From contig JAFTVD010000008.1 in the NCBI GenBank assembly GCA_017465945.1, forward strand, positions 14,091 to 78,090: a stretch of 64,000 nt of DNA, read 5' to 3'. The notes under the pieces were generated by a model that made no database searches, was not told the DNA's origin, and saw only the letters and a list, made by a program, of their open reading frames with translations. Shown here piece by piece: positions 1,539 through 61,711 of the stretch. Both the position numbers and the translations under genes were made by a program. Each line of letters begins with the position of its first letter. The first letter of the stretch is position 1. Source of the DNA: Alphaproteobacteria bacterium. Its GTDB lineage: Bacteria > Pseudomonadota > Alphaproteobacteria > RF32 > CAG-239.

Positions 1539-2276
1539 CTATATCATAGCCATACCGCCATTTACGTGTAATGTTTGACCTGTGATATATTGTGCTTCAT
1601 CAGAAGCTAAGAAAGCAACAGCATTAGCAATATCTTGAGCTTCACCAAGTTTTCCTTCAGGAATCTTGCTAAGTAGTTGAGCTTTAACATCATCAGGAAG
1701 AACATCTGTCATAGGAGTTCTAATAAATCCTGGTGCGATAGAGTTAACAGTAACACCTCTTGAACCAACTTCTTGAGCCAAACATTTATTCATGGCAATC
1801 ATACCTGCTTTAGATGCAGAGTAGTTTGCTTGACCTGGGTTACCCATTACACCAACAACAGAAGCGATACCGATGATACGGCCATATCTTCTCTTCATCA
1901 TGCCTCTGATAGCAGCTTTAGCAAGTTTGAAGCCAGCTGATAAGTTAACATCTAATACTAATTGCCAATCTTCGTCACTCATACGCATAAATAAGTTATC
2001 ACGAGTTAAACCAGCGTTATTTACTAAAATGTCAATACGCCCCATTTTTTCTTCAACGTTTTTAACAAGATTGTTAACATCTTCAGAGTTTGTGAGGTTT
2101 GCAACAAAGAATTCAACTCTGTCACCAAGTTCAGCTTTTAGCTTTTCCATTGGTTCTGCACGCATATCTGTAAGTGCAAGTGTTGCGCCTTGAGCGTGTA
2201 ATGTGCGAGCGATTTTATCTCCTAGTCCTCCGGCAGCACCGGTAATTAAAGCGATTTTACCATCTAAATTAAACAT
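1539..2276 (-). CDS. fabG: 3-oxoacyl-[ACP] reductase FabG
   Basis: 245 aa SDR: TGAAGGLG dinucleotide motif, NNAG, catalytic YSASKAG. Directly downstream of fabD. Confidence 0.9.
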   Translation of the reverse strand: MFNLDGKIALITGAAGGLGDKIARTLHAQGATLALTDMRAEPMEKLKAELGDRVEFFVANLTNSEDVNNLVKNVEEKMGRIDILVNNAGLTRDNLFMRMSDEDWQLVLDVNLSAGFKLAKAAIRGMMKRRYGRIIGIASVVGVMGNPGQANYSASKAGMIAMNKCLAQEVGSRGVTVNSIAPGFIRTPMTDVLPDDVKAQLLSKIPEGKLGEAQDIANAVAFLASDEAQYITGQTLHVNGGMAMI

Positions 2277-3427: not shown

Positions 3428-5761
3428 ATGGCTAAAAAATCAAATAAAAAAACATTAAAGGATAATTCTAAAAGTATATTAGGAAAAATATTAGGAATTT
3501 TTTCTGGCTCTTCTATTTTAATTTTTTCAGTTTGTTTAATATTATCAATGATAGGTTATACACCAACAGACGAATCTTTTAATGTTTCAAATTCGGATAA
3601 AATTAACAATTTTATGGGTAGATTTGGTTCGTATTCATCTGATTTTATTGTTAATAGCTATGGTTTAGCTGTCTTTATCTTTTTAATTCCAGTTATGATT
3701 TGGGGATTCTTATTAATAAAACATCACAAAATTTTAGAATTCAAAATTCGTTTATTTGCGGTATTTCTAGGAATAATTACTTTATCTGGAGTGTTTTATC
3801 AAACATTAGCATCAAGTTTAGAAAAAATAAACTTATTAGGTAAATTTAGCCATATTTTACCCCAAAGTCTTAATAATATCCTTGTTAGTTGGGGGGCTAA
3901 AGGATATGAAAACATTATAACATTATTTATTTTAAGTTTAATATCATTCATGTCTTTTAACCTTGCAACAGGTGTAACATTCAAACATTGGTATAACACA
4001 ATAAAAACAATTAGCGTATTTACTTATAGGGTAATAAAGGCAATTTTAGTCTTTATTAAAAAGCTTATTCATCCTAGTGCATTATTTGAGAAAAATAACG
4101 TAACATCATCTTTATCAAGTAGTAATGAAAATGCTCAAAGAATAGAGCCTGTTTTAGAAACAGCACCAGTAGAAGATAAAAAAATAAAAGAAAAAACACA
4201 AAATAAACCCAAAGCAGATGTTGTTAGTATTTCTAAAGCAAAAATCAAACAAGACAATGGCTATAAATATCCAGATATAAATCTTTTAAGCCGTCCTAAA
4301 GATAAAATGGGGTTAAGTGTAAATGAAAAAGAACTTAATGAAACAGCAAGAGAGCTTGAAGAGGTTTTATCACAATTTAGTATTAATGGTAAAATTGTAA
4401 AAGTTCGTCCAGGTCCGGTTGTAACATTATATGAATTAGACCCTGCATCAGGAACAAGAACATCTCGTATCATATCTCTTGCAGATGATATTGCTCGCTC
4501 AATGGCAGTAAGTTCTGTTCGTATTGCAACAGTAACAGGTTCAACAACTGTTGGTATTGAAGTTCCAAACGCAAAAAGAGAGACAGTTTGGGTAAGAGAT
4601 TTATTAGAAGATATTAATTTCTCTGATAGCAAAAACACTCTAAACATTGTATTAGGTAAAGATATTGGTGGTAAAAATGTATATGCAGATTTAGCAAAAA
4701 TGCCACACTTACTAATAGCTGGTACCACAGGTTCAGGTAAATCTGTTGGTGTTAATGCTATGATTCTATCGCTTCTTTATCGTATGAGACCTGATGAATG
4801 TAAATTTATGTTAATAGACCCTAAGATGTTAGAATTTTCTATGTATAATGGAATTCCTCATCTTTTAACTCCTGTGATTACAGATCCTGCTAAGGCGGTA
4901 ATAGGTCTTAAATGGGCGGTAAGAGAAATGGAAGAACGCTATCGTGCAATGGCTTGTTTATCTGTTAGAAATATTACAGGCTATAACTTAAAGCTAAAAG
5001 AAATGGCGGATAAAGGTGAAACACCAAAACGAACCATCCAAGTAGGGTTTGACCCAGAAACTGGAAAACCAAAATATGAAGAGCAACTTCTTGATACTAA
5101 ACCACTTCCATATATTGTTATCGTTGTAGATGAAGCAGCCGACCTTATGATGGTTGCAGGTAAAGAGGTAGAAGCAGCAATTCAGCGTCTTGCTCAAATG
5201 GCTCGTGCAGCAGGTATTCACCTTATTATGTCAACTCAACGTCCGTCTGCAGATGTTATCACAGGCACAATTAAATCTAACTTCCCAACACGTATTAGTT
5301 ATCAAGTAACATCTAAAATCAACAGCCGTACAATCTTAGATGAACAAGGTGCAGAACAATTACTAGGTAGAGGTGATATGCTTTATATGCCAGCAGGACT
5401 TCGTCCGCAACGTGTTCATGGTGGATTTGTGCCAGATGAAGAAGTAGAAGCAGTAATGAATTTCTTAAAATCTCAAGGTGAACCAATGTATGTTGATGGG
5501 GTAACCGAAGGTGAGTTAGATACAAAAGGTAAAGATAGCGGTCCTTTGTTTGATAAAACATCCATGGGCGGTGGTTCGTCAAAAGAAGATTTGTACGAAC
5601 AAGCTGTATCTATTGTAAGAAATGATAAAAAAGCATCAATTAGCTATATTCAACGAAGGTTAGGAGTTGGTTATAACAAAGCCGCAACTCTAATCGAACG
5701 TATGGAAGAAGAGGGAGTAATAACTCCAGCAGATCATGTAGGCAGAAGAGAGGTTATTTAA
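3428..5761 (+). CDS. ftsK: DNA translocase FtsK
   Basis: 777 aa: N-terminal TM helices, linker, Walker A GTTGSGKS, Walker B VVVDEAADL, C-terminal gamma winged helix SISYIQRRLGVGYNKAATLIERMEEEGV. Confidence 0.93.
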   Translation: MAKKSNKKTLKDNSKSILGKILGIFSGSSILIFSVCLILSMIGYTPTDESFNVSNSDKINNFMGRFGSYSSDFIVNSYGLAVFIFLIPVMIWGFLLIKHHKILEFKIRLFAVFLGIITLSGVFYQTLASSLEKINLLGKFSHILPQSLNNILVSWGAKGYENIITLFILSLISFMSFNLATGVTFKHWYNTIKTISVFTYRVIKAILVFIKKLIHPSALFEKNNVTSSLSSSNENAQRIEPVLETAPVEDKKIKEKTQNKPKADVVSISKAKIKQDNGYKYPDINLLSRPKDKMGLSVNEKELNETARELEEVLSQFSINGKIVKVRPGPVVTLYELDPASGTRTSRIISLADDIARSMAVSSVRIATVTGSTTVGIEVPNAKRETVWVRDLLEDINFSDSKNTLNIVLGKDIGGKNVYADLAKMPHLLIAGTTGSGKSVGVNAMILSLLYRMRPDECKFMLIDPKMLEFSMYNGIPHLLTPVITDPAKAVIGLKWAVREMEERYRAMACLSVRNITGYNLKLKEMADKGETPKRTIQVGFDPETGKPKYEEQLLDTKPLPYIVIVVDEAADLMMVAGKEVEAAIQRLAQMARAAGIHLIMSTQRPSADVITGTIKSNFPTRISYQVTSKINSRTILDEQGAEQLLGRGDMLYMPAGLRPQRVHGGFVPDEEVEAVMNFLKSQGEPMYVDGVTEGELDTKGKDSGPLFDKTSMGGGSSKEDLYEQAVSIVRNDKKASISYIQRRLGVGYNKAATLIERMEEEGVITPADHVGRREVI

Positions 5762-19199: not shown

Positions 19200-20504
19200 C
19201 TAGTCTTTTAATTTATTTTCTATAAGTTTGCCAGAGATTCTACCACCTTTTTTTGCAATCAATTTACTTTTTGATGTATTAAAATCAGATATGGCTTTAT
19301 CTCCTCTAACTATATTTCCATCTTTAGATATGATAACATTTCTTTCTAGTTCGGCAATATTTTTCTTTATATAATATACACCCCTATCTGCACTTGCTGT
19401 ATTATTTTCTTGCATAATATTGATGTTGTCATAAAAATGAAACTCTTCTTTATCTTGAAAGTATACTGCTTTTAATGCTGTTATGGTGTTTTTCTTGTTA
19501 ATGATTTTCACATTCTTTTCTAATGAAAAAGTTCTTTTTGAAATATCATATACCCCAACATCTGCCGTTGCGATGTATCCTTTTTTATCTACGATTTTTA
19601 CATTCTCATAAAGAGTGATAATTCCTTTATTTGCTATATACTCTCCTTTATTAGCATAAGCGGTTTTGTCTTTTGAATTTATTTCAGTATTACCAACACT
19701 ATATGCTTTTTCTATTTCAAATTTTTTAGTATCCTTAAAATATACTGTTACAACATCACCTTTTATCGTGTCTTTGTCTTTTGTTATTGTTGCGTTTGTT
19801 GCAATAAATTTTTTTTCATTATTGAAAAATGTGGCTTTTTGAGGGGTGGTAAGTTTTAAATCATTATTTATGATAGTAACATTTTTTAAAAGATTTATAA
19901 TGCTTTCTTTTTTATCAAAATTAAAACTATCTGCAACAAAACTGCCGGTATCAGTTTTACCAAATATTTTTTCTTTTCCTTCGCCTTTTTCTGTTGTAAA
20001 ATTATATAAAGCACTATTGGTATTTATCTTTAGTTGATTGTTATAATTAGCAACAACATCCTTATTTAGCTGTAGTATTTTTTTTGTTTCATCATAAATA
20101 CCGGTTTTAGCAATTAAAGATATCTTTTTTTCCTTATCTGTTGTATTTGCATCTGGATTAATAAGGCTATAAATCTTTTTACCTGGAGTAGTTTCTTCAA
20201 CCACATCGGCTTTTAACACACTAAATTGATTATCTTTTTCGGTTATTTCAAAAACAGTGTTTTTTATTCTAAATTTTTCAAAATAAATTTTCTCATCTTC
20301 TGCTAAAGAAATTGTATTATCAGGTGTTGTATCAAAATCAAATAAAGCGACCCCAACACCTAATAATAAAGCTGTTAAGCTTGGTAAAAATAATTTAAAG
20401 AAACGAACAACTTTTATTCTTCTAGTAACAAAACTTCTTTCTTCTTCTTCAAAAGGATTCTTTTCACCACTAAAAAAAGTGTCAATTTTTTGAGTTTCAA
20501 ACAA
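19200..20504 (-). CDS. Apparent LptC-LptA fusion (membrane-anchored double OstA/beta-jellyroll protein)
   Basis: 434 aa in the position where separate lptC (~190 aa) and lptA (~180 aa) normally lie. One N-terminal TM helix (LFLPSLTALLLGVGVALF). An LptC-like half runs to about aa 205. The second half is LptA-like, with repeated x-A-D-x-x-x-Y strands (ATADVGVYDISKRTFSLEKNV, ASADRGVYYIKKNIAELERNV). No internal stop and no internal signal peptide. Confidence 0.6.
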   Translation of the reverse strand: MFETQKIDTFFSGEKNPFEEEERSFVTRRIKVVRFFKLFLPSLTALLLGVGVALFDFDTTPDNTISLAEDEKIYFEKFRIKNTVFEITEKDNQFSVLKADVVEETTPGKKIYSLINPDANTTDKEKKISLIAKTGIYDETKKILQLNKDVVANYNNQLKINTNSALYNFTTEKGEGKEKIFGKTDTGSFVADSFNFDKKESIINLLKNVTIINNDLKLTTPQKATFFNNEKKFIATNATITKDKDTIKGDVVTVYFKDTKKFEIEKAYSVGNTEINSKDKTAYANKGEYIANKGIITLYENVKIVDKKGYIATADVGVYDISKRTFSLEKNVKIINKKNTITALKAVYFQDKEEFHFYDNINIMQENNTASADRGVYYIKKNIAELERNVIISKDGNIVRGDKAISDFNTSKSKLIAKKGGRISGKLIENKLKD

Positions 20505-44809: not shown

Positions 44810-45547
44810 GTGATGTTTGATATATTTTATACACTATTTAGATATAAGGATAAAGCACAAAACGAAGAGTTAGGTTATTATCCAGAAAAGGTTGATGTAA
44901 AAGCTTTTCCAGAAAGAAGATATTTGTGGACATCACGTTTTTTTGTTGTGATATCCTGTCTTAGTTTGTGTGTTAGTATGATTCTCGCAAGTGTGTTATG
45001 TATAATGATACCTAAGAAGAAATCTTATATTATGCCTCTGCAAATAGATTACAAACGTTATCAAGTAACAAGAATGGAGTATTCAGAATACGAAGCATAT
45101 GCAGGTAATCTTGTGACAGAAAGTGTTTTAAATGATTATATTATAAAAAGATATACAATAGGCGATTCGTTTGAGGAACTTACACATAGGTATAGTGATA
45201 ATGAATTTCTTAAATTAGCAACAAGTGACGACGTGTGGGGAGAGTTTGAGCAAACCGAACGACCATACTTTGAGGCAATGCAAAGACAAGGTGTTCGTCG
45301 TAAAGTAGAGGTAGAAAATAGTTACCCTGTATCATTTAATTTTTGGCAAGTGCGATTTAATACAATAGATACAATACCAGGAAAAGAAAAACCATTAATA
45401 AGTAAATGGCTAGCATCCATAAGAATGACTTTTAATTTTTCAAGATATGAGGATAAAGATTTAGGATTAAAAAATCCATATGGTACTAATATTGTTACAT
45501 ATAATTTGTCATATCTCGGAAATAACATCAAAAGTGTAAGAAAATAA
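44810..45547 (+). CDS. VirB8/DotI-like type IV secretion inner-membrane component, orphan copy
   Basis: 245 aa bitopic protein (TM helix FFVVISCLSLCVSMILASVLCIMI). By-eye alignment to A. tumefaciens VirB8: MPLQID vs EPFVVRVD, FWQVRF vs LIQVRY, KWLASIRMTFNFS vs HWVSILNFSY, KNPYGTNIVTYNLSY vs INPLGFQVSEYRSD. Confidence 0.6.
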   Translation: MMFDIFYTLFRYKDKAQNEELGYYPEKVDVKAFPERRYLWTSRFFVVISCLSLCVSMILASVLCIMIPKKKSYIMPLQIDYKRYQVTRMEYSEYEAYAGNLVTESVLNDYIIKRYTIGDSFEELTHRYSDNEFLKLATSDDVWGEFEQTERPYFEAMQRQGVRRKVEVENSYPVSFNFWQVRFNTIDTIPGKEKPLISKWLASIRMTFNFSRYEDKDLGLKNPYGTNIVTYNLSYLGNNIKSVRK

Positions 45548-47536: not shown

Positions 47537-47548
47537 AAGAAAATAAAA

Positions 47549-47577
47549 AGGTAGCAACTAGCTACCTTTTATTTTTT
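47549..47577 (+). terminator. Rho-independent terminator after clpX
   Basis: AGGTAGC (47549..47555) AACTA GCTACCT (47561..47567), followed by TTTTATTTTTTT. Confidence 0.8.
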
Positions 47578-47682: not shown

Positions 47683-48708
47683 TCATCTAAATCGTTTGAC
47701 GCCATTTGCTATCCTTAATATTGTAAAACTAGCAACTTGCTCGGAAGGTAAATCCGTCGTTTTGCATTCTCTTTCCGTTTGGTATAATAAAGAAAGTGCG
47801 TTTAATATTCTACTCTTATTCCATATTTTTAGTTGAGAAATGAAGGCATTTTTTCTAAAAAACATTAAAGGGGGCTTTAATGAAAAAACAACTTTATCGG
47901 CGCTTTCTCCTTTTTCCATTTTAACAACACAATCAAGCAGTTTCAAAAAATGATAACTAATAGACCTTACAATACTAACAGGATTTTCTCCTTCAAAAAT
48001 TAATCTATTATATGACGCTATAGCTTTATCAACCATTCCTTGTGCAATAAAATAATTCAAATCTTCTTGAGAAGATGCAGATGTATCGCTTATAACAGTT
48101 AAAACATCTTCCACTCTAATTGTTTTATTACTTCCCATATAAGTTATTAGTTTATCAAGTTCATTATTGCTAATTTTTCTATCGTTAGATAGTCGAGAAC
48201 ATAAAATCTGAAAAGCTGTATTATCTATACTAAAACCATTTTGCGATATAAATTTATTTGCAACTTGAGAGATGTCTTCGTCTCTATCATCATAACAGCC
48301 TATACCATATAAACAATCTTCATCTTTTGCCATAATGGCTAAAGAATCTTTTGTTTTTAAGCTAGATGATGTAATAACTAGCAAACTATCAGAAGAAGAA
48401 TTATCAAGTAATTCTTTTAGTTGTTTGGTAAGCAAATTGGTAGCATCTTTTATAACAACAACTCTTCTTCCACCCATTAAAGATTGTGCATTAAATTCGG
48501 CATATAAACAGCCAATATCAGAAGTAATATCACCCATTTCTAAATAACTAACATGAAACGCATCATATATATCAGGAGATATTGACTTGATAAATTGTTG
48601 CGAAAGTGTAGAAACCATTCCTTCGTTGCTACCATATACAACAACACCTCTAATTTTTTGAGGTAAAGATTTTAATATTCCATCTACTTGTTCCGGTTTA
48701 ATATTCAT
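47683..48708 (-). CDS. holA: DNA polymerase III delta subunit
   Basis: Start trimmed to MNIKPEQVDGILK (11-nt overlap with the lptE stop), ~341 aa. The call rests mostly on length and on the conserved leuS-lptE-holA position. Confidence 0.7.
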   Translation of the reverse strand: MNIKPEQVDGILKSLPQKIRGVVVYGSNEGMVSTLSQQFIKSISPDIYDAFHVSYLEMGDITSDIGCLYAEFNAQSLMGGRRVVVIKDATNLLTKQLKELLDNSSSDSLLVITSSSLKTKDSLAIMAKDEDCLYGIGCYDDRDEDISQVANKFISQNGFSIDNTAFQILCSRLSNDRKISNNELDKLITYMGSNKTIRVEDVLTVISDTSASSQEDLNYFIAQGMVDKAIASYNRLIFEGENPVSIVRSISYHFLKLLDCVVKMEKGESADKVVFSLKPPLMFFRKNAFISQLKIWNKSRILNALSLLYQTERECKTTDLPSEQVASFTILRIANGVKRFR

Positions 48709-49261
48709 CCGGATTTCCTCGTTTTGTTTGTAATGAGTGGAAATATGCACCCAATCTTAATGAGATGTCATTTGCAATAATTTTAGCTGCATTTTTTTCA
48801 TTTTTCTTTTGAGCAAACGTTGTTGAATATGGGTCTCTTAAAATGTCATAACCTAAATAAGCAACACTATTTCCATTAATCAAAGTTTTGTGCTCATTGT
48901 TTTTTAGAACATACGTTACTTTATAAATAACTTTTTTACGAGTTGCTGTAATATCATTTCTTAGGGCTTGGTCAATCTCTTCTTTATTAATTTGAGTAAC
49001 ACTTAAAATATATTTAGGGGATTTGGGTTCACCTTTGGGGGTGAGTTTATCAAGCAAATCGTTACGAATTAATTGTCCAATTCTGTCTTGAATAAGATCA
49101 ATTTTAACACTTGCCATTTCTTCTTTAATTCCAGTATCAAACTCACTATCATAATACCATTCACTACTAGATTTTTTTTCAACATAAAGTGGTTCAAATC
49201 CACATCCAGAAATGAACACACAAAGCACTAAAAGTGCAATATTTTTTCTACTATACAACAA
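48698..49261 (-). CDS. lptE: LPS-assembly lipoprotein LptE
   Basis: 187 aa: lipobox FISGCGFEPLY. Lies between the leuS relic and holA. Confidence 0.7.
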   Translation of the reverse strand: MLYSRKNIALLVLCVFISGCGFEPLYVEKKSSSEWYYDSEFDTGIKEEMASVKIDLIQDRIGQLIRNDLLDKLTPKGEPKSPKYILSVTQINKEEIDQALRNDITATRKKVIYKVTYVLKNNEHKTLINGNSVAYLGYDILRDPYSTTFAQKKNEKNAAKIIANDISLRLGAYFHSLQTKRGNPDEY

Positions 49262-50234
49262 TGTTTACAATCCTATTTGGTATAACAATTACTTTTTTAG
49301 GTTTAATTTTGGTAAGTTTTTCTGCGATATTATCTAAAGATTTAGCAATTTTAACCACCTCATCATTATCTAAATCACGTTCAACTTCAATTACCCCACG
49401 CACTTTGCCATTAATTTGAATAGCAATCGTTGCAGAATTTTCTTTAGCAAGTTCTATATCACCACTAGGCCAATTCTCGTTCATAATAAGAGTATTATAA
49501 CCTAACCTTGCCCACATTTCATCTGCTAAATGTGGTGCAAAAGGTGACATCAGTTTTAAAAGTACCTCATAACATATTTGAGGGATTTCTTTTAATTTCG
49601 CTAAATAATTTACATAAGTCATTAATAAAGAAATAGCCACATTAAACTTCAACTGTTCGATTCCTTTACTAATACTTATAATAGTCTTATGCATAATTTG
49701 CAAATCTTTTCTGCTAGGAGTAACAGGAGTAATTTTGTTAAATAATCCAAAAACTTTACCAACAAATTTATGTGCTCCATTTAGACTATCTTCAGACCAT
49801 TTTACATTTTGATTAAATGGCCCAATAAACATCATATATATCCTAAAAGCATCTATTCCATATGCGTCAATCATTTCATTAATATTAATTATATCATCTG
49901 AATATATTGATGTTTTTCTATTATTTACATCTAGCGTATCGCTTCCATTCATTTTCTTATGGCGAGTAATTACATCCAAACCAATATAAAAACGTACATC
50001 ATTTATATTCAATTTAACATCATTGTACAAAAAGTTTGCTAGTGTATAATTCCTCTTTTTCTCAATAGCCGTTTCTGTTTTATATACCCCCTCATCAAAC
50101 CATATTTTATGCCACTTATTTTCAACAGTTTTGAAGTTGTATCTATCTTCTAAATCCCAATCTTTTTTCCATTCTTCAAAACTTTCTTTTCCATTATATC
50201 TGGCACTAACTACCATTTTGGAAATCCCCATCAC
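49251..50234 (-). CDS. LeuRS-derived ORF lacking the catalytic core and editing domain (in-frame relic or repurposed tRNA-binding protein)
   Basis: 327 aa versus ~850 aa for LeuRS. The N-terminal ~70 LeuRS residues are present but the HIGH motif reads NIND. The match then resumes just after the KMSKS position (MIDAYGIDAFRIYMMFIGP). The anticodon-binding and C-terminal domains are intact (IQINGKVRGVIEV..VIPNRIVNIVV). See finding. Confidence 0.7.
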   Translation of the reverse strand: MMGISKMVVSARYNGKESFEEWKKDWDLEDRYNFKTVENKWHKIWFDEGVYKTETAIEKKRNYTLANFLYNDVKLNINDVRFYIGLDVITRHKKMNGSDTLDVNNRKTSIYSDDIININEMIDAYGIDAFRIYMMFIGPFNQNVKWSEDSLNGAHKFVGKVFGLFNKITPVTPSRKDLQIMHKTIISISKGIEQLKFNVAISLLMTYVNYLAKLKEIPQICYEVLLKLMSPFAPHLADEMWARLGYNTLIMNENWPSGDIELAKENSATIAIQINGKVRGVIEVERDLDNDEVVKIAKSLDNIAEKLTKIKPKKVIVIPNRIVNIVV

Positions 50235-50319
50235 TTAATTTTAATCAAATGTTTGCCAATAACTTATCATATCGAAAAAAAAATACAATGATTTTAAATG
50301 TTTTATTTATTTTACTGAT

Positions 50320-51861
50320 TTAATTTTTGGGAACAGCCACAATGTATCTTCCAAATTCTTCAATGTTAAAGTTGTAAAGGAAATATCTATTATTTTTTGT
50401 GGTGATATAAATACAATCATTTGAAATTTTTTCTGTGTTAAGGCCATCCTCAAAACGATAATGCAAAAAACCAGCTGATTCTAGATATGCTTGCGGATAG
50501 TTTCTCCATACACTATGGCGAATATAATCATTCACAGGAATTTTTTGATGCCACAAAACTCTCGGGTAAATAGTATGGCCATCTGTTATTATAATATTAT
50601 ATTTTTTTACTTCTCTTTTACTATTGGCAAATACTAAAGCCTCTTCTAAACCAATAGAAAATTCTTGTTCAGCAAGTTTGTTATAATTGTTAAAATATTC
50701 ATAGCAAAAAAGTATAAAACTACAAAGATATATAGCTATAATAGAGGTAATTATTATCTTTTTCTTGAAAAAAGTAATCCCTAAAACAATTAACCAAACT
50801 AGAGGGAAATATAAAAAATTAAGTCTTGTTGGTGATGGATATATTCCTATTCCATAAATTATTCCAATAATAAGCCATAATACCATCGGTAAATTATAAG
50901 CAATTTTTTTATTTTTTAATTCATAATATAATTTTTGTATCAAAGATATTACCCCTAATATCATAAATAATAAGGAAAACGGATAGAATAGACCAAATTT
51001 AGTGATATAACTATAAATAAAAAAATCTGTTTGCTCTATATATATACTATAAAGGGCTGCCAATTTAATTGGTAAATTATCATATCCCCATTCACTACTG
51101 CGCCAATATAAAAGTTTGGGTACGGATATATATGTACCTCTAATTTCATCAATGTAGCCATAATTAACCAGTAAAAGCAACAAAAGAGGTATATTCAAAA
51201 TGATAAATAAACATCCACTTCCTAAAATATGTAAAAAATTACTTTTATTGATATACCACAAATATCCCATAGAAAATAATGCGATAAAAAAAATAGGAAC
51301 CCATGTTATAGCATAAGAGTATAAAGCAATACTATAAAACAAAACACTTAAATATAAATACTTTATCTTTTTTAATGCTTTTAAATAAAAGTAAAAACCT
51401 GTTAACATACCAAAGGTACAAGCAGAACTTTCTAATCCCCAACGAGATTGAACAATATGCCAAGGAATAATGGCTATAATAAGAAAACCAATAAGAGCAG
51501 TTTTTTTATTATAGCATATCTTAAGTGAACGATAAAAAATATAACAACTTAACACTCCAAGTATAGCTTGAGGTAGTCTTAATACCCATGTTTTAGCATC
51601 TAAAAAATAAAAAAATACTCTCAAAAGATATGAATAAAAGACATTCATTCCACTTCCCCAAGAAATGAAATAAATCGGATTAGTATACCCCCAACTATCT
51701 ATTCCATATTTTGACATTGACCAAGCTTCATAACCAGCAAATGCTTCGTCTTGATTTATTCCACCTGGTATAGAGCCTAAATAAACAAAGCGAGAAATAA
51801 AAACGGTAATCAAAATTACCCAAAATAAAATATCTGCGACATTAAACTTTTTACTCATCAT
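50320..51861 (-). CDS. GT-C fold glycosyltransferase, family 39/83 (ArnT/PMT_2)-like
   Basis: 513 aa polytopic protein: first-loop GGINQDEAFAGYEAWS (DE motif) and VLRLPQAILGVLSCYIFYRSL..IIPWHIVQSR. ATGA overlap with the mlaC-like stop. Confidence 0.65.
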   Translation of the reverse strand: MMSKKFNVADILFWVILITVFISRFVYLGSIPGGINQDEAFAGYEAWSMSKYGIDSWGYTNPIYFISWGSGMNVFYSYLLRVFFYFLDAKTWVLRLPQAILGVLSCYIFYRSLKICYNKKTALIGFLIIAIIPWHIVQSRWGLESSACTFGMLTGFYFYLKALKKIKYLYLSVLFYSIALYSYAITWVPIFFIALFSMGYLWYINKSNFLHILGSGCLFIILNIPLLLLLLVNYGYIDEIRGTYISVPKLLYWRSSEWGYDNLPIKLAALYSIYIEQTDFFIYSYITKFGLFYPFSLLFMILGVISLIQKLYYELKNKKIAYNLPMVLWLIIGIIYGIGIYPSPTRLNFLYFPLVWLIVLGITFFKKKIIITSIIAIYLCSFILFCYEYFNNYNKLAEQEFSIGLEEALVFANSKREVKKYNIIITDGHTIYPRVLWHQKIPVNDYIRHSVWRNYPQAYLESAGFLHYRFEDGLNTEKISNDCIYITTKNNRYFLYNFNIEEFGRYIVAVPKN

Positions 51862-58294: not shown

Positions 58295-61200
58295 TTATCT
58301 ACCTTCTACTTTTCTTCTTACAACCATATCAACATCTTTGACGTTGAGATTTTTTTCTAATTCTCTAGTTGGTATATTATCTGCAACTTTTTCTGTAGAC
58401 ACAATTTCTTTTCCATCATATTCGTAACCTTTATGTAGGCTAAATGTGTCATCAGTTTTCTCTTCAGCATATGTTATAGTTCCTTCTCTTTCTTCAAAGA
58501 TTGGTTCTGGTGAAACATTTTGGGTAGGGCGCATATAGTATCTATCAAAGCCATCACTACCTGGGTTTGTAACTCCGCTAGAAGCTTGTTCTGTTGTATA
58601 ACTTCCAGCTTCTTCGCAGGCTCCCGCTGTAAAGTAGCGAACCATTACAGGGCTTGTTCCTGTTACACCATCAATAGTACCATTTTCATTTACGCTATCA
58701 ATAACTTCTTTGATTTTTGTTGCATTTTCCACAGAAATGCTATCATCGCACTCTTTTAGATAATCTACTACATTTGTAATTTCTTTGGCAAATTTACCAT
58801 GCTCGTCATTTGACCAAGCAATCATTTGCTTAATAGAAAACATAGATTGTTCAACACTTAAACCTTCGAAAATACCACCTTTAGCACGCATTTCATCTGT
58901 TATTCTTGCTGCATAATCATCATATGCATCTTCGCCAAAATTATCTTTAAAGAATGTTTGCATTAAGTTATATTGCTTTTCTGTAATACCAGTATTTTCA
59001 AAACCTCCACGTTCTGGAACATTTCCAGCAGCCGGTGTTCCAACTTCTACTTCATCAGAATCAGCAATAACCTCTGTTGCGGTTTCATCAAAAATAATTT
59101 CAGCTTCAACTCCGGTATAAATACCACCTGTTGCAATAACTTCAGTATTGGTAACCTCTATTGCAGCTTCATCAGTAACAATTTCAGCTTCAACTCCTGT
59201 ATTAACACCACCTGTTGCAATAACTTCAGTATTGGTAACCTCTATTGCAGCTTCATCAGCAACAATTTCTGCTTCAACTCCAGTATTAATACCACCTGTC
59301 GCAACAACTTCTTCTACAGCTGCGCCTTCAACAACTTCAGTTGAAATATTTTTACGAACAACCATTTCTTGATCTGTTACATTTAAATTTTCTTCTAATT
59401 TATCTGTTGGAATTTCACTTCCAATTAATTCCTCATTACCAATATTATCGGCTTTATATAAATCAAAAGAATTGTCATTTGTATATACGGTAGTTGAAGA
59501 GCCTTCTCTTTCTTCGAAAATAATCTCTTCTGTTTCAATAGTTGGAGTTTCTTCTATAACTTCAACTATTTCTTCATCGCAACCACAATCGTATGTTTGT
59601 GAATGAAGTACCGCTTTTTCTCCACAATTAACATCACGTCCGGTAACCACAACACAATCTTTACCTTCTACATCTTTGATTGCACCATTATCTAAAACAT
59701 CACTAAGTTTAGTTACATCATCATTAGTGATTTGTTCATCACAACCAAAGAAAGCGTCTAACTTTGCAATAGTTTCACGGTGTTGAGGTAAATTCCAAGA
59801 AGACATTCTTTCATACTTAAATAGTACTTCATCTCTAGTCATACCTTCAAATTGACCACCCGCTTGAAGCATGCTATCATCAATTTTGCAATAAAATTCT
59901 TGATATTTGTCAGAATTTCCCCAAAATGATTGTAATCTTTTCCATTGAGCTTTAGTAATACCTGTTTCTTCACTCCATTCAGTTGGGGGTGTAATTTCAA
60001 CATTTGATACTTCCATATCATTACTAAGGTTATTAGCTTCAACCTCTTGCTCTACAACAGCACTTTGTAAAGATACACTATCTGCTTGATTTGTTAAGCT
60101 ATCATTAGCTTCAAAGCTTTTAGCAAACAAAGTATCAACTTTAGCTGTATCAACTTCAACAGAAGCTGTATCAGCAGCTAAACCTGTTTGCTCATTAACA
60201 TTATTAAGTAAGCTATTAGCCGCTTTATTTGCAGCTGCATCTCCTAAATCAGCTGTGCTTCTTATATCAGGATTTTCGCCGTCGCAACAATTAACCATAA
60301 TGGCACTAACACCAATAAATCCTGCAACTGTAAATGCTTTATCCCAAAAATCTTTCTTCTTATTTTTTAAAGTGTGAACAGTGTTTATTGTATTATTAAC
60401 AGAAGATACAGCCAAACTTGATAATCTTTGTGCGCTTCTTGCAGCAATAGCTCCAACGCCACTACCTAAACTTCCTAAAGCACCACTTGCAACAGCTCCA
60501 GCAGCACCAAGTCCAACTAAACCAGCAGCACTACCCCAGCCAGCTTCTTTATAGTATGCTTTACGTTTTTCTTTGTTGCTAAATATGTTATTAGAAGCAT
60601 TTTTAAGTCTATCTAAAAATCTTACTTTAGGTGCTGTATTACCTTCTTTTTTAGCAACTTCTTTCTCTAAACGCTTTGTTCTTCTTGCTTCTGTAATAAT
60701 TGGCCATACCCAAGAAGATGCAGCCTTATATGCGCCATATGCTACAACAGCAGTTCCAAGCCAAGGAGCACTTGTAGCAGTACCAACAATTAAACCTGCT
60801 GTAGCTGCAACATCTGTAATTACCTTTGGAGATCTGTCTTTCAAGTTTTTAGCAAACTCATATCTTTGTCCCCAAACTTGTTTTGCTTTTTCACTAAATG
60901 AAGTTTTAGCCTTGTTTACAAAAATGCTTGCCTTAGAGAAGCATTCTTGAGCCTTACCTTTTGCTGATAAAGCTTTGTCAGCTAGCTTCTTTCTATAGCT
61001 TTCAGCTTTTACTTCGCTTTCTGCGCATGCTGTAATCACTAAATCAGAAGATACTTCAATTTTTTCTTCCATATCAATAGCTTTATCTTGTAAAGCCATA
61101 TTTCCAAGAGCTTCTTGTTGTTTTACAAAAAATTCTTTATCATCATTAACAACAGCATCAGCTGCATTTGGGATATTATTTTGTATTTGAGCAGCAGTAC

Positions 61201-61711
61201 GTAATTGAACTAAAGTCCCTAAAAATGAATCTTTAACTTCATCAAATAATGTTTCTCTTTTTTCTTCAATAGATTGGCTAGCAAAATCATGACTTCTAGA
61301 TTGTTCAAGCATAACATCAAGTTTTGCTTTCTCAATCAACATATCAATATGTTTATTTCTTTCTTCTAAAGATACCCCTGCACCATCTTTTCCATCAACA
61401 ATAGGAGTATTGTTAATTGCTGTTTTAACATCACCATCGCTTAACAATGAGTTCTTGATATCATCATTGTCTAATTCATTATATAAGAATTCTGTATTGT
61501 CAGCAAGTTCTTTTGGACTTGCTGTAATAACTTCAGCTTCTTCTTGTTTTTTCTTAAACGCTAATTCATATTTGTGAGCTTCTTCTAATGATTTAGCAAA
61601 TTCTTCATCATTTTTTCTAACTATTTCTAATGCTTGAGCAAAAGTTTTTTCATCAGCTTCAATGTATCCGCCGGCAATCTCATAAGCTGTGTCCAAATCC
61701 ATGTTACTCAT
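58295..61711 (-). CDS. Giant orphan protein (1138 aa): helical N-terminus, glycine-zipper TM cluster, duplicated ~220-aa module, 28-aa tandem repeats
   Basis: Single uninterrupted ORF with its own 228-bp upstream region and its own terminator. TM/Gly-Ala-rich segments at aa ~297-340, 391-427 and 455-475. Module A aa ~578-787 and module B aa ~900-1134 share GIT.xQ[WY], GGxFEG[ML][ST], IFEEREG and NLNV.D..MVVR[KR]. No family recognised. Confidence 0.8.
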   Translation of the reverse strand: MSNMDLDTAYEIAGGYIEADEKTFAQALEIVRKNDEEFAKSLEEAHKYELAFKKKQEEAEVITASPKELADNTEFLYNELDNDDIKNSLLSDGDVKTAINNTPIVDGKDGAGVSLEERNKHIDMLIEKAKLDVMLEQSRSHDFASQSIEEKRETLFDEVKDSFLGTLVQLRTAAQIQNNIPNAADAVVNDDKEFFVKQQEALGNMALQDKAIDMEEKIEVSSDLVITACAESEVKAESYRKKLADKALSAKGKAQECFSKASIFVNKAKTSFSEKAKQVWGQRYEFAKNLKDRSPKVITDVAATAGLIVGTATSAPWLGTAVVAYGAYKAASSWVWPIITEARRTKRLEKEVAKKEGNTAPKVRFLDRLKNASNNIFSNKEKRKAYYKEAGWGSAAGLVGLGAAGAVASGALGSLGSGVGAIAARSAQRLSSLAVSSVNNTINTVHTLKNKKKDFWDKAFTVAGFIGVSAIMVNCCDGENPDIRSTADLGDAAANKAANSLLNNVNEQTGLAADTASVEVDTAKVDTLFAKSFEANDSLTNQADSVSLQSAVVEQEVEANNLSNDMEVSNVEITPPTEWSEETGITKAQWKRLQSFWGNSDKYQEFYCKIDDSMLQAGGQFEGMTRDEVLFKYERMSSWNLPQHRETIAKLDAFFGCDEQITNDDVTKLSDVLDNGAIKDVEGKDCVVVTGRDVNCGEKAVLHSQTYDCGCDEEIVEVIEETPTIETEEIIFEEREGSSTTVYTNDNSFDLYKADNIGNEELIGSEIPTDKLEENLNVTDQEMVVRKNISTEVVEGAAVEEVVATGGINTGVEAEIVADEAAIEVTNTEVIATGGVNTGVEAEIVTDEAAIEVTNTEVIATGGIYTGVEAEIIFDETATEVIADSDEVEVGTPAAGNVPERGGFENTGITEKQYNLMQTFFKDNFGEDAYDDYAARITDEMRAKGGIFEGLSVEQSMFSIKQMIAWSNDEHGKFAKEITNVVDYLKECDDSISVENATKIKEVIDSVNENGTIDGVTGTSPVMVRYFTAGACEEAGSYTTEQASSGVTNPGSDGFDRYYMRPTQNVSPEPIFEEREGTITYAEEKTDDTFSLHKGYEYDGKEIVSTEKVADNIPTRELEKNLNVKDVDMVVRRKVEGR
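59060..59311. repeat. Three tandem 84-bp (28-codon) repeats inside the giant gene
   Basis: Exact 84-bp period (the same 14-mer, apart from one mismatch, starts at 59097, 59181 and 59265). Encodes EV[VI]ATGG[IV]NTGVEAEIV.DEAAIEVTNT three times. Copies 1 and 2 differ at only a few bases; copy 3 is more diverged. Confidence 0.9.

Follow-up and report, generated by a model that had tools for sequence, protein, structure and literature searches.

What remains of a leucyl-tRNA synthetase (LeuRS) gene once its catalytic core has been removed, and how does a cell carrying such a gene charge its tRNA(Leu)? These questions are raised by a 64,000-nucleotide (nt) stretch of an alphaproteobacterial genome (contig JAFTVD010000008.1, assembly GCA_017465945.1; hereafter the window, whose numbering is used for coordinates), in which the leuS slot of a leuS-lptE-holA locus holds a short open reading frame (ORF). 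The original prediction, made from the sequence alone, described a 327-amino acid (aa) LeuRS that had lost its catalytic core and CP1 editing domain in frame, and it proposed either a decaying relic or a retained tRNA(Leu)-binding mini-protein, adding that the organism would lack a LeuRS of its own if no other leuS exists. With moderate confidence, we favor the view that the stub has been retained as a tRNA(Leu)-binding protein without catalytic activity and that leucylation is carried out by a LeuRS not seen in the available sequence. Stubs of the window lineage are referred to below as W or W-type and those of a second lineage as L1-type.

The 327-aa ORF in the leuS slot is present as described (49251..50234, minus strand, from a GTG; stop codon 49251-49253). 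The same open frame contains an ATG at 50231 (326 aa) and another at 50216 (321 aa). The latter is likely the real start and yields a 321-aa product; it is the start used by gene callers and by NCBI, a GGGGA Shine-Dalgarno sequence lies 8 nt upstream of it, and the same start arrangement is kept in a full-length relative (L167, introduced below). The stub retains the N-terminal ~95 and the C-terminal ~210 residues of LeuRS, the latter comprising the stem-contact fold (SC-fold), the anticodon-binding domain, and the C-terminal domain. Anticodon_1 (PF08264) was the sole significant Pfam domain (aa 179-291, 3e-19); neither tRNA-synt_1 (PF00133) nor the CP1 editing domain (PF13603) was detected in this search, and tRNA-synt_1g (PF09334) gave a sub-threshold match (0.0074) to the segment that follows KMSKS (aa 91-151). 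The bacterial LeuRS model TIGR00396 (leuS_bact) scored 184 bits against a cut-off of 548.4 and aligned over model positions 604-842 only. When compared to PDB sequences with phmmer, aa 31-101 of the stub resembled the LeuRS N-terminus and aa 103-327 resembled residues 635-879 of Escherichia coli LeuRS (tagged-chain numbering).

Because pairwise alignments are prone to misplace the N-terminus of the stub onto the region before KMSKS, its segments were aligned separately, and the multiple alignment (MAFFT) was built without the LeuRS fragments that attract this N-terminus. Aligned to the 825-aa LeuRS of its own clade, the stub has no counterpart of orthologue residues ~102-602, and most of the Rossmann core, together with the CP1 editing domain, the Leu-specific domain, and the Zn module, is missing. 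The predicted in-frame loss of the core and CP1 is therefore upheld, but it amounts to about 500 residues when measured against the clade's own enzyme and not to ~540. The HIGH signature (HVGH in orthologues) reads NIND, as had been predicted, and KMSKS reads KTSIY. The claim that the match resumes after KMSKS holds only in part, in that the core is gone but the degenerate KMSKS loop is still present; the ~500 codons found in relatives drop out at about 49917-49931. The anticodon-binding and C-terminal domains, claimed to be complete, are indeed intact as judged by the PF08264 match, the alignment to E. coli residues 635-879, and a predicted local distance difference test score (pLDDT) of ~90. 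A frameshift as the cause of the decayed HIGH region was considered and was unsupported at the nucleotide level, and microhomology at the deletion end-points is not discernible at the present divergence. Judged from its sequence, the protein cannot be a synthetase, since it would be unable to activate leucine or to charge tRNA.

The 321-aa product corresponds to NCBI record MBQ8750383.1, ‘MAG: class I tRNA ligase family protein [Alphaproteobacteria bacterium]’, where MAG denotes a metagenome-assembled genome; exact look-ups of the 327-aa and 326-aa forms returned no record. An identical protein is encoded on seven independently assembled contigs of up to 159 kb with matching flanks (NCBI MAG, ENA, and Logan), including ENA ERZ28654190, from a ruminant gastrointestinal sample, and Logan SRR12529335. 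Other W-type assemblies are SRR12529362, SRR24653677, and SRR32918214. Two of the loci (L163 and L164) are nucleotide-identical across the stub gene. Clustering at 90% identity recovered nine W-type variants, all intact at 321 or 326 aa, and the eight beyond that of the window are 5-10% divergent with an unchanged junction.

Scans of GTDB representative genomes and metagenome contigs with the stub as query yielded 26 loci from related gut and rumen Alphaproteobacteria, several of them labelled ‘Acetobacter sp.’ MAGs, and these carried full-length leuS only; the window's own genome was not among them. The comparison with relatives that the original prediction had called for thus gave a uniform result: in 27 of 27 relatives examined, a leuS of ~825 aa occupies the MlaC-leuS-lptE-holA slot, and the proteins encoded by the 26 loci are 83-95% identical among themselves. 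The closest full-length relative is a sister species (L167; GCA_052845035.1) that has, like the window, an additional PMT_2 glycosyltransferase gene located upstream of leuS, and whose downstream gene order matches that of the window. Its flanking proteins are 91-99.5% identical to those of the window (e.g., ClpX, 98%; LptE, 93.6%, with a ratio of non-synonymous to synonymous divergence (omega) of 0.04; the holA product, 91%), and synonymous divergence (dS) is about 0.5-0.9. Therefore, the stub is the orthologue of a normal leuS that was gutted after the two species split.

Several other observations concern these relatives. The PMT_2 gene (512/513 aa; window 50320-51861, minus strand; L167 1294-2832) lies between a MlaC-like gene and leuS, is found only in the window lineage and its sister L167, and is absent from L003 and L165; its product evolves fast, W and L167 sharing 69% aa identity in it as opposed to 91-99% in neighboring proteins. 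A FabG-like protein of 245 aa (window 1539-2276, minus strand, compared to L169) is identical in the window lineage and the sister L167 genome and occurs exactly on 24+ contigs despite the synonymous divergence of 0.5-0.9 elsewhere, which points to either very strong conservation or recent exchange. Candidates for additional stubs with 80-88% query coverage (P0082, P0091, P0094, P0108, and P0120), together with L094, proved to be ordinary LeuRS or C-terminal fragments. Three full-length enzymes (P0160, P0161, and P0164) are mosaic relative to P0130, with 92-94% identity in the core, 80% in the N-terminal 100 residues, and 66% in the C-terminal module, which suggests recombination or generally faster evolution of the tRNA-binding module in the clade. 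Lastly, P0031 (490 aa, on an ENA contig of 3920 bp) is a predicted protein in which DnaJ domains (PF00226 and PF00684) are joined to a C-terminal portion of LeuRS with 51% identity to the stub; it represents either a chimera produced by gene calling or assembly or a further rearranged leuS.

A second stub of the same architecture was identified in other samples (318 aa; P0002/P0129; loci L001 and L165; L1-type assemblies SRR33718303 and SRR14597538), in a leuS slot without the PMT_2 insertion. Its boundaries differ from those of the window stub: W keeps orthologue residues 1-101 and ~604-825, whereas L1 keeps residues 1-~115, including YPTEFDAFALPKE, and ~622-825, such that KMSKS is wholly deleted. 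Neighbor-joining trees, built both for the flanking genes and for the C-terminal module of LeuRS, placed the two stubs apart, the window with L003/L004/L167 and L001 with a rumen set (L088/L089/L091). The quartet ((W,L003/4),(L001,L088/89/91)) was recovered in 96-100% of 1000 bootstraps for every quartet and data set (flanks and LeuRS C-terminus). N-terminal signatures agree with two origins, with KSS common to the second stub and L088 as opposed to KES/KET. Since both stubs are nested among full-length relatives, two independent in-frame deletions of the core are the parsimonious interpretation of these sequences. An exhaustive search of 1.84 billion representatives revealed no further protein of this type among the best 150 matches; four short proteins that were considered (P0372, P0381, P0400, and P0366) are fragments containing KMSKS.

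Both stub lineages have remained open. Neither frameshifts nor premature stops were found in any of 11 variants (nine W-type and two L1-type; 318-326 aa). Comparison of the window stub with that of L002 gave an omega of 0.24 over the whole stub (17 synonymous and 18 non-synonymous differences; binomial p = 1e-4; spectrum-aware simulation p = 8e-4), and across three W-type sequences omega was 0.30 for the whole stub (p = 6.5e-6), 0.21 for the C-terminal module (p = 3.5e-5), and 0.42 for the catalytic remnant (p = 0.04). By comparison, omega was 0.08-0.12 for neighboring genes of the same genome pair and 0.05 for full-length LeuRS (L003 vs L004). The substitution pattern thus indicates that the stub is under relaxed purifying selection after truncation. 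A purely decaying relic, one of the options originally proposed, is disfavored because the retained part does not evolve neutrally (omega 0.21-0.30), and another of them, a retained tRNA(Leu)-binding mini-protein, is favored by the same values together with domain-specific constraint and convergent retention.

This constraint is distributed unevenly along the protein. The N-terminal extension and helix are 71-73% identical to full-length P0130, compared to a median of 68% among full-length enzymes themselves. In contrast, the segment from the first Rossmann strand to HIGH is only 34-39% identical to full-length enzymes (34.5% to L167, with a non-synonymous divergence (dN) of 0.68), which share 91-95% identity there, and the KMSKS loop is ~29% identical. 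The segment after KMSKS (aa 111-149) is intermediate (67% to P0130/L167 vs 85% among full-length enzymes). For the anticodon-binding domain (75% identity to L167, omega 0.14) and the C-terminal domain (69%), conservation equals that seen between full-length enzymes. Only the HIGH and KMSKS remnants approach neutral evolution. Five C-terminal domain residues (Q267, G270, K271, R273, and G274) are invariant across stubs and full-length enzymes; Q267 and R273 match Q915 and R921 of Mycobacterium tuberculosis LeuRS, an elbow-facing Gln and a variable-arm Arg, respectively (PMC3561953). The two stubs also share six identical replacements at columns that are ≥90% conserved in full-length enzymes, two of which (aa 121 and 135) fall in the segment that formerly faced the core, where aa 138-139 are likewise changed in both stubs, to different residues.

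The N-terminal extension, of ~24 residues, is itself a feature of LeuRS in this clade (window 50100-50216, minus strand; L003 8234-8370) and is equally conserved in stubs and full-length enzymes. By eye, it resembles a second, tandem copy of the motif of the first LeuRS helix (RYNGKETFEEWKKDW / RYNFKKVESKWQNIW).

AlphaFold2 (AF2) models predict the same fold for both proteins (pLDDT 80.8 and predicted template modelling score (pTM) 0.75 for the window stub; 85.0 and 0.80 for the second stub), comprising two N-terminal helices, one leftover Rossmann helix, a helical bundle, and an α/β C-terminal domain. Foldseek placed the window model best on tRNA-bound E. coli LeuRS (3ZJT; E = 1.6e-15, TM 0.56 over 241 columns). 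pLDDT values below 50 are confined to the HIGH and junction/KMSKS stretches in the window stub and to the HIGH stretch alone (aa 61-68) in the second. In the window stub, what is left of HIGH and KMSKS has thus degenerated and is modelled as disordered linkers.

If the stub is catalytically dead, leucine must be attached to tRNA by something else. Leucine is used normally in the proteins of the window, so leucylation must occur, and because LeuRS is essential and the core of the native enzyme is lost, a leucine-charging enzyme is presumably encoded elsewhere. This second LeuRS is probably foreign. The genome does not appear to be in general decay, since housekeeping genes surrounding the stub are intact (GluRS, RelA/SpoT, FtsK, ClpXP, Lpt and Mla components, GAPDH/PGK, and the dcw cluster). 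We infer that the stub is expressed and, from the conserved C-terminal domain residues together with the predicted fold, that it binds tRNA(Leu). In the scenario that we favor, the native leuS of a rumen or gut alphaproteobacterium would have lost residues ~102-602 by in-frame deletion once a second, probably foreign, LeuRS that performs leucylation had made the native core dispensable. The stub would still be made and would be kept by relaxed purifying selection as a folded protein consisting of the N-terminal helices and a complete tRNA-binding module (stem-contact fold, anticodon-binding bundle, and elbow-binding C-terminal domain). Most likely, by analogy with the isolated beta subunit of Aquifex LeuRS, it would bind tRNA(Leu) at the elbow and anticodon stem, acting alone or as a helper of another LeuRS. 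Translational coupling of the essential lptE-holA pair to the 3' end of leuS would enforce both the reading frame and the retention of both gene ends.

Several observations weigh against this scenario. Constraint is clearly relaxed, with a branch dN for the C-terminal module of 0.15 in the window compared to 0.02 in L167 (6.6-8.7x; the corresponding excess for L001 vs L088 is 1.5-2.5x). The L1-type sequences differ by only two synonymous and six non-synonymous changes, which are too few to show selection, and an omega below 1 could stem partly from selection against misfolding of a peptide whose translation is obligatory. In addition, no second leuS was found in ~81 kb of sequence (the window plus ~17 kb of flank), and the closest proteins in databases included neither a clade-type second copy nor a split-off core, so that a replacement LeuRS is postulated from essentiality alone. 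Searches bearing on this point included tblastn against the window, which revealed no other leuS fragment, and a search with the sister core (aa 102-602), whose 120 closest matches were full-length enzymes only, none >94% identical and none a core-only protein of ~500 aa. None of the closest full-length LeuRS was a clade-type second copy from a W-type genome.

The main rival, which we regard as possible but rather unlikely, is that the stub is a functionless relic whose frame stays open solely because the essential lptE-holA pair is coupled to it. Here, lptE and holA would depend on the leuS promoter for transcription and on the leuS stop for translational coupling, and a stop codon or frameshift within leuS would therefore be polar; residual constraint would reflect avoidance of toxic misfolding. 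The architecture of the locus is compatible with this explanation. The leuS/lptE and lptE/holA pairs overlap by 11 nt and the Shine-Dalgarno sequence of lptE is embedded in the final leuS codons, an arrangement that is the same in full-length loci (the 11-nt leuS/lptE overlap occurs in both L167 and L003), and the conserved element upstream of leuS is kept with or without the deletion. The relic explanation also accommodates the accelerated W branch, the near neutrality of the catalytic remnants, and the fact that both deletions are in frame with both gene ends kept, and coupling to lptE-holA is probably why the deletions took this form. However, the last ~10 codons and any open frame would suffice for coupling, which leaves unexplained why a tRNA-binding module of ~210 residues and the N-terminal helices were kept in two events, why the C-terminal module has an omega of 0.21, and why the tRNA-elbow residues are invariant. 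A relic would also be expected to undergo further in-frame shrinkage, which none of the 11 variants shows. This coupling alternative, the recurrence of the deletion, and the full-length orthologues in close relatives are the points at which our analysis extends beyond the original prediction.

It is improbable, in our estimation, that the stub is instead the tRNA-binding half of a re-split LeuRS whose catalytic and editing core is encoded elsewhere, in analogy to the alpha and beta subunits of the Aquifex enzyme. The retained part does roughly equal the Aquifex beta subunit, itself a tRNA(Leu) binder; the conserved N-terminal helices are normally packed in the enzyme body, and the convergent changes cluster at the former core interface (aa 121, 135, 138, and 139). 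Yet a split enzyme would need its signature motifs, and KMSKS is degenerate in W and deleted in L1, while the first Rossmann strand and HIGH are decayed and not preserved. A core gene was found neither within ~81 kb nor, as a core-only protein or as anything >94% identical, among the 120 closest matches to the sister core.

Less probable still is that these bacteria have no LeuRS of their own, two lineages having gutted their only leuS, and depend on a host or partner for leucyl-tRNA or LeuRS activity while the stub is kept. No leuS-derived gene was seen other than the catalytically dead one, no clade-type second copy has been recorded despite several W-type assemblies, and a VirB8 type IV secretion gene at the locus is compatible with host-associated life. 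Nevertheless, LeuRS is among the most stable and universal aminoacyl-tRNA synthetases (aaRS) across >2500 prokaryotic genomes (PMC5388404), and the genome fragment is without reductive decay, with GluRS, lipopolysaccharide (LPS) transport, cell division, glycolysis, and RelA/SpoT intact; moreover, ~81 kb of the genome was examined, and a LeuRS of foreign type would escape these searches. Finally, an origin of the deletion in faulty assembly or sequencing, or in a chimeric contig, as a metagenome-assembled source might suggest, is effectively refuted by recovery of the same 321-aa product by different assemblers from different samples on seven contigs with matching flanks, by the nucleotide identity of L163 and L164, by the junction shared with eight further variants at 5-10% divergence, and by the assembly of an independent second stub lineage in two samples.

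A retained, tRNA-binding stub would have partial parallels among known proteins. Canonical bacterial LeuRS (E. coli 4AQ7/4ARC; the 825-aa orthologues of L003 and L167) represents its direct parent at the same locus; with the LeuRS of its clade the stub has in common an N-terminal extension and helix, both tRNA-binding domains (anticodon-binding and C-terminal; 69-75% identical), and the elbow residues, but it is without ~500 residues and has lost HIGH and KMSKS. The best PDB sequence match to the stub (4.2e-34) is Mycoplasma mobile LeuRS (3ZIU), a case of natural domain loss (CP1) in which, unlike in the stub, only the editing and Leu-specific modules are gone and the enzyme is active with HIGH and KMSKS. 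The LeuRS beta subunit from Aquifex aeolicus (~290 aa) is, like the stub, a separate polypeptide of the LeuRS C-terminal part, and it binds tRNA(Leu) in vivo and in vitro via its C-terminal domain (PMC3561953). It differs in having a functional KMSKS and an alpha partner, whereas in the stub KMSKS is dead or deleted, the N-terminal ~95 residues are fused, and no alpha-like partner was found within ~81 kb or among the 120 closest core matches. LeuRS-I of Sulfolobaceae, LeuRS2 of Halobacteria, and AgnB2 of Agrobacterium K84 are likewise LeuRS-derived, and such duplicates keep affinity for tRNA(Leu) with lost or reduced aminoacylation or sit beside a housekeeping LeuRS (PMC9437257, PMC4005665). 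These are full-size paralogues with a core beside the native gene, whereas here the native orthologue itself was gutted in place; the AgnB2 structure (5AH5) was among the Foldseek matches of the stub model. The known unusual LeuRS forms thus retain either full size or activity.

Free-standing proteins derived from or related to aaRS domains include GluQRS/YadB, HisZ, AlaX, YbaK/ProX, and those of the Trbp111/Arc1p type. Like the stub, they keep part of an aaRS or a tRNA-binding appendage as a non-aminoacylating protein; unlike the stub, most are derivatives of catalytic cores or editing domains or are unrelated OB-fold tRNA binders. As a kind, free-standing aaRS pieces are thus known (PMC5388404, PMC9437257), and the stub has the attributes of an aaRS-derived protein, namely aaRS homology, no aminoacylation machinery, and retention by selection. 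A limited literature search returned no description of a protein comprising a LeuRS N-terminus, anticodon-binding domain, and C-terminal domain, nor of a native leuS orthologue hollowed out at its own locus, let alone convergently. To our knowledge, no stand-alone protein consisting of the LeuRS anticodon-binding and C-terminal domains is known.

Few translation enzymes are as stable and as universally single-copy as LeuRS (PMC5388404), and the hollowing of a native leuS twice in a deeply conserved operon slot, with the tRNA-binding half kept under selection, is unusual. Were the stub to bind tRNA(Leu), it would represent a tRNA-recognition module of LeuRS that evolved naturally to stand alone, and thereby a new type of protein derived from an aaRS; it would also be a natural experiment on which portions of a class Ia synthetase can fold and work once the Rossmann core is gone. 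The favored reading predicts a displaced, probably foreign LeuRS in these genomes, so that an essential gene would have been replaced non-orthologously or xenologously; a LeuRS-targeting toxin or an editing-site inhibitor in the rumen might have driven this. Translational coupling to lptE-holA, in turn, can steer gene loss toward in-frame, end-preserving deletions. For annotation, pipeline labels such as ‘class I tRNA ligase family protein’ or ‘leucyl-tRNA synthetase’ could credit a MAG with a LeuRS even though the gene is dead. If the improbable absence of any LeuRS were true, it would constitute the loss of an aaRS in a bacterium that is otherwise not genome-reduced.

The positions of the stub, its segments, and the adjoining genes are compiled in Table 1. 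The leuS-lptE-holA context, the ISGCG lipobox, the 11-nt overlaps, and the 85-nt upstream gap, all part of the original prediction, were borne out by ORF and domain calls.

Table 1. Features of the leuS-lptE-holA locus in the 64-kb window.
Feature	Position	Strand	Details and evidence
Stub (mini-LeuRS) coding sequence	49251..50216	-	321 aa; ORF list, database record, Pfam/NCBIfam, AF2 model
Clade N-terminal extension and first LeuRS helix, aa 1-39, ARYNGKESFEEWKKDW...RYNFKTVENKW	50100..50216	-	Conserved; predicted helices 13-20 and 28-42, pLDDT ~80
Decayed first Rossmann strand, HIGH, and next helix, aa 40-95	49932..50099	-	NIND at 49998-50009; pLDDT <50 for aa 46-71
Deletion junction and degenerate KMSKS loop, aa 96-110, DVNNRKTSIYSDDII	49887..49931	-	Alignments to 825-aa orthologues; pLDDT <50 for aa 94-110
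Post-KMSKS stem-contact-fold segment, aa 111-149, EMIDAYGIDAFRIYMMFIGPFNQ...	49770..49886	-	67% identity to P0130/L167
Helical anticodon-binding domain, aa 150-255	49452..49769	-	Pfam Anticodon_1 3e-19; pLDDT >90; Foldseek
C-terminal domain, putatively tRNA-elbow-binding, aa 256-321, AIQINGKVRG...PNRIVNIVV	49254..49451	-	Invariant elbow residues; pLDDT ~90
leuS/lptE overlap, 11 nt, lptE start TTG	49251..49261	-	AGGA 9 nt upstream, inside last leuS codons
lptE, 187 aa, lipobox ISGCG	48698..49261	-	Pfam LptE
holA, 341 aa as called	47683..48708	-	TIGR01128 1.8e-52; overlaps lptE by 11 nt
Upstream intergenic region with conserved element and Shine-Dalgarno sequence	50217..50319	-	Upstream gap of the 327-aa ORF 85 nt

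The intergenic region upstream of the stub contains a conserved element, TTTTAAAATCATTGTATTTTTTTTTC, also given as TTTTAAAAT[C/A]CATTGTATTTTTTTTTC (window 50235-50300, minus strand; L167 ~2880-2930; L165 ~4975-5010). It is kept in W-type loci, in the full-length L167 locus, and in the second stub lineage (L165). Its conservation suggests a possible role as promoter or regulatory site; sigma-70 spacing is not matched, and a scan of the locus for promoter and terminator consensus sequences returned nothing above chance in this AT-rich DNA. No literature match was found for leuS, lptE, and holA together. Between the convergent holA and clpX genes, a perfect 10-bp stem-loop with T-runs on both strands (window 47546-47570) is likely a bidirectional terminator.

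Searches for tRNA genes and Rfam families returned nothing in the window. Elsewhere in it, a lone VirB8-family gene (44810-45547, plus strand) adjoins clpP, with no other vir genes nearby, and is kept in L165 and L167. An ORF of 1138 aa (58295-61711, minus strand; also L170 11612-13793) has no Pfam match at 1e-5, and just past the right end of the window lies a gene of about 1780 aa for which no Pfam hit is recorded. A single 434-aa ORF (19200-20504, minus strand) encodes both LptC (aa 45-211) and LptA/LptD_N (OstA; aa 313-410) and appears to be an LptC-LptA fusion.

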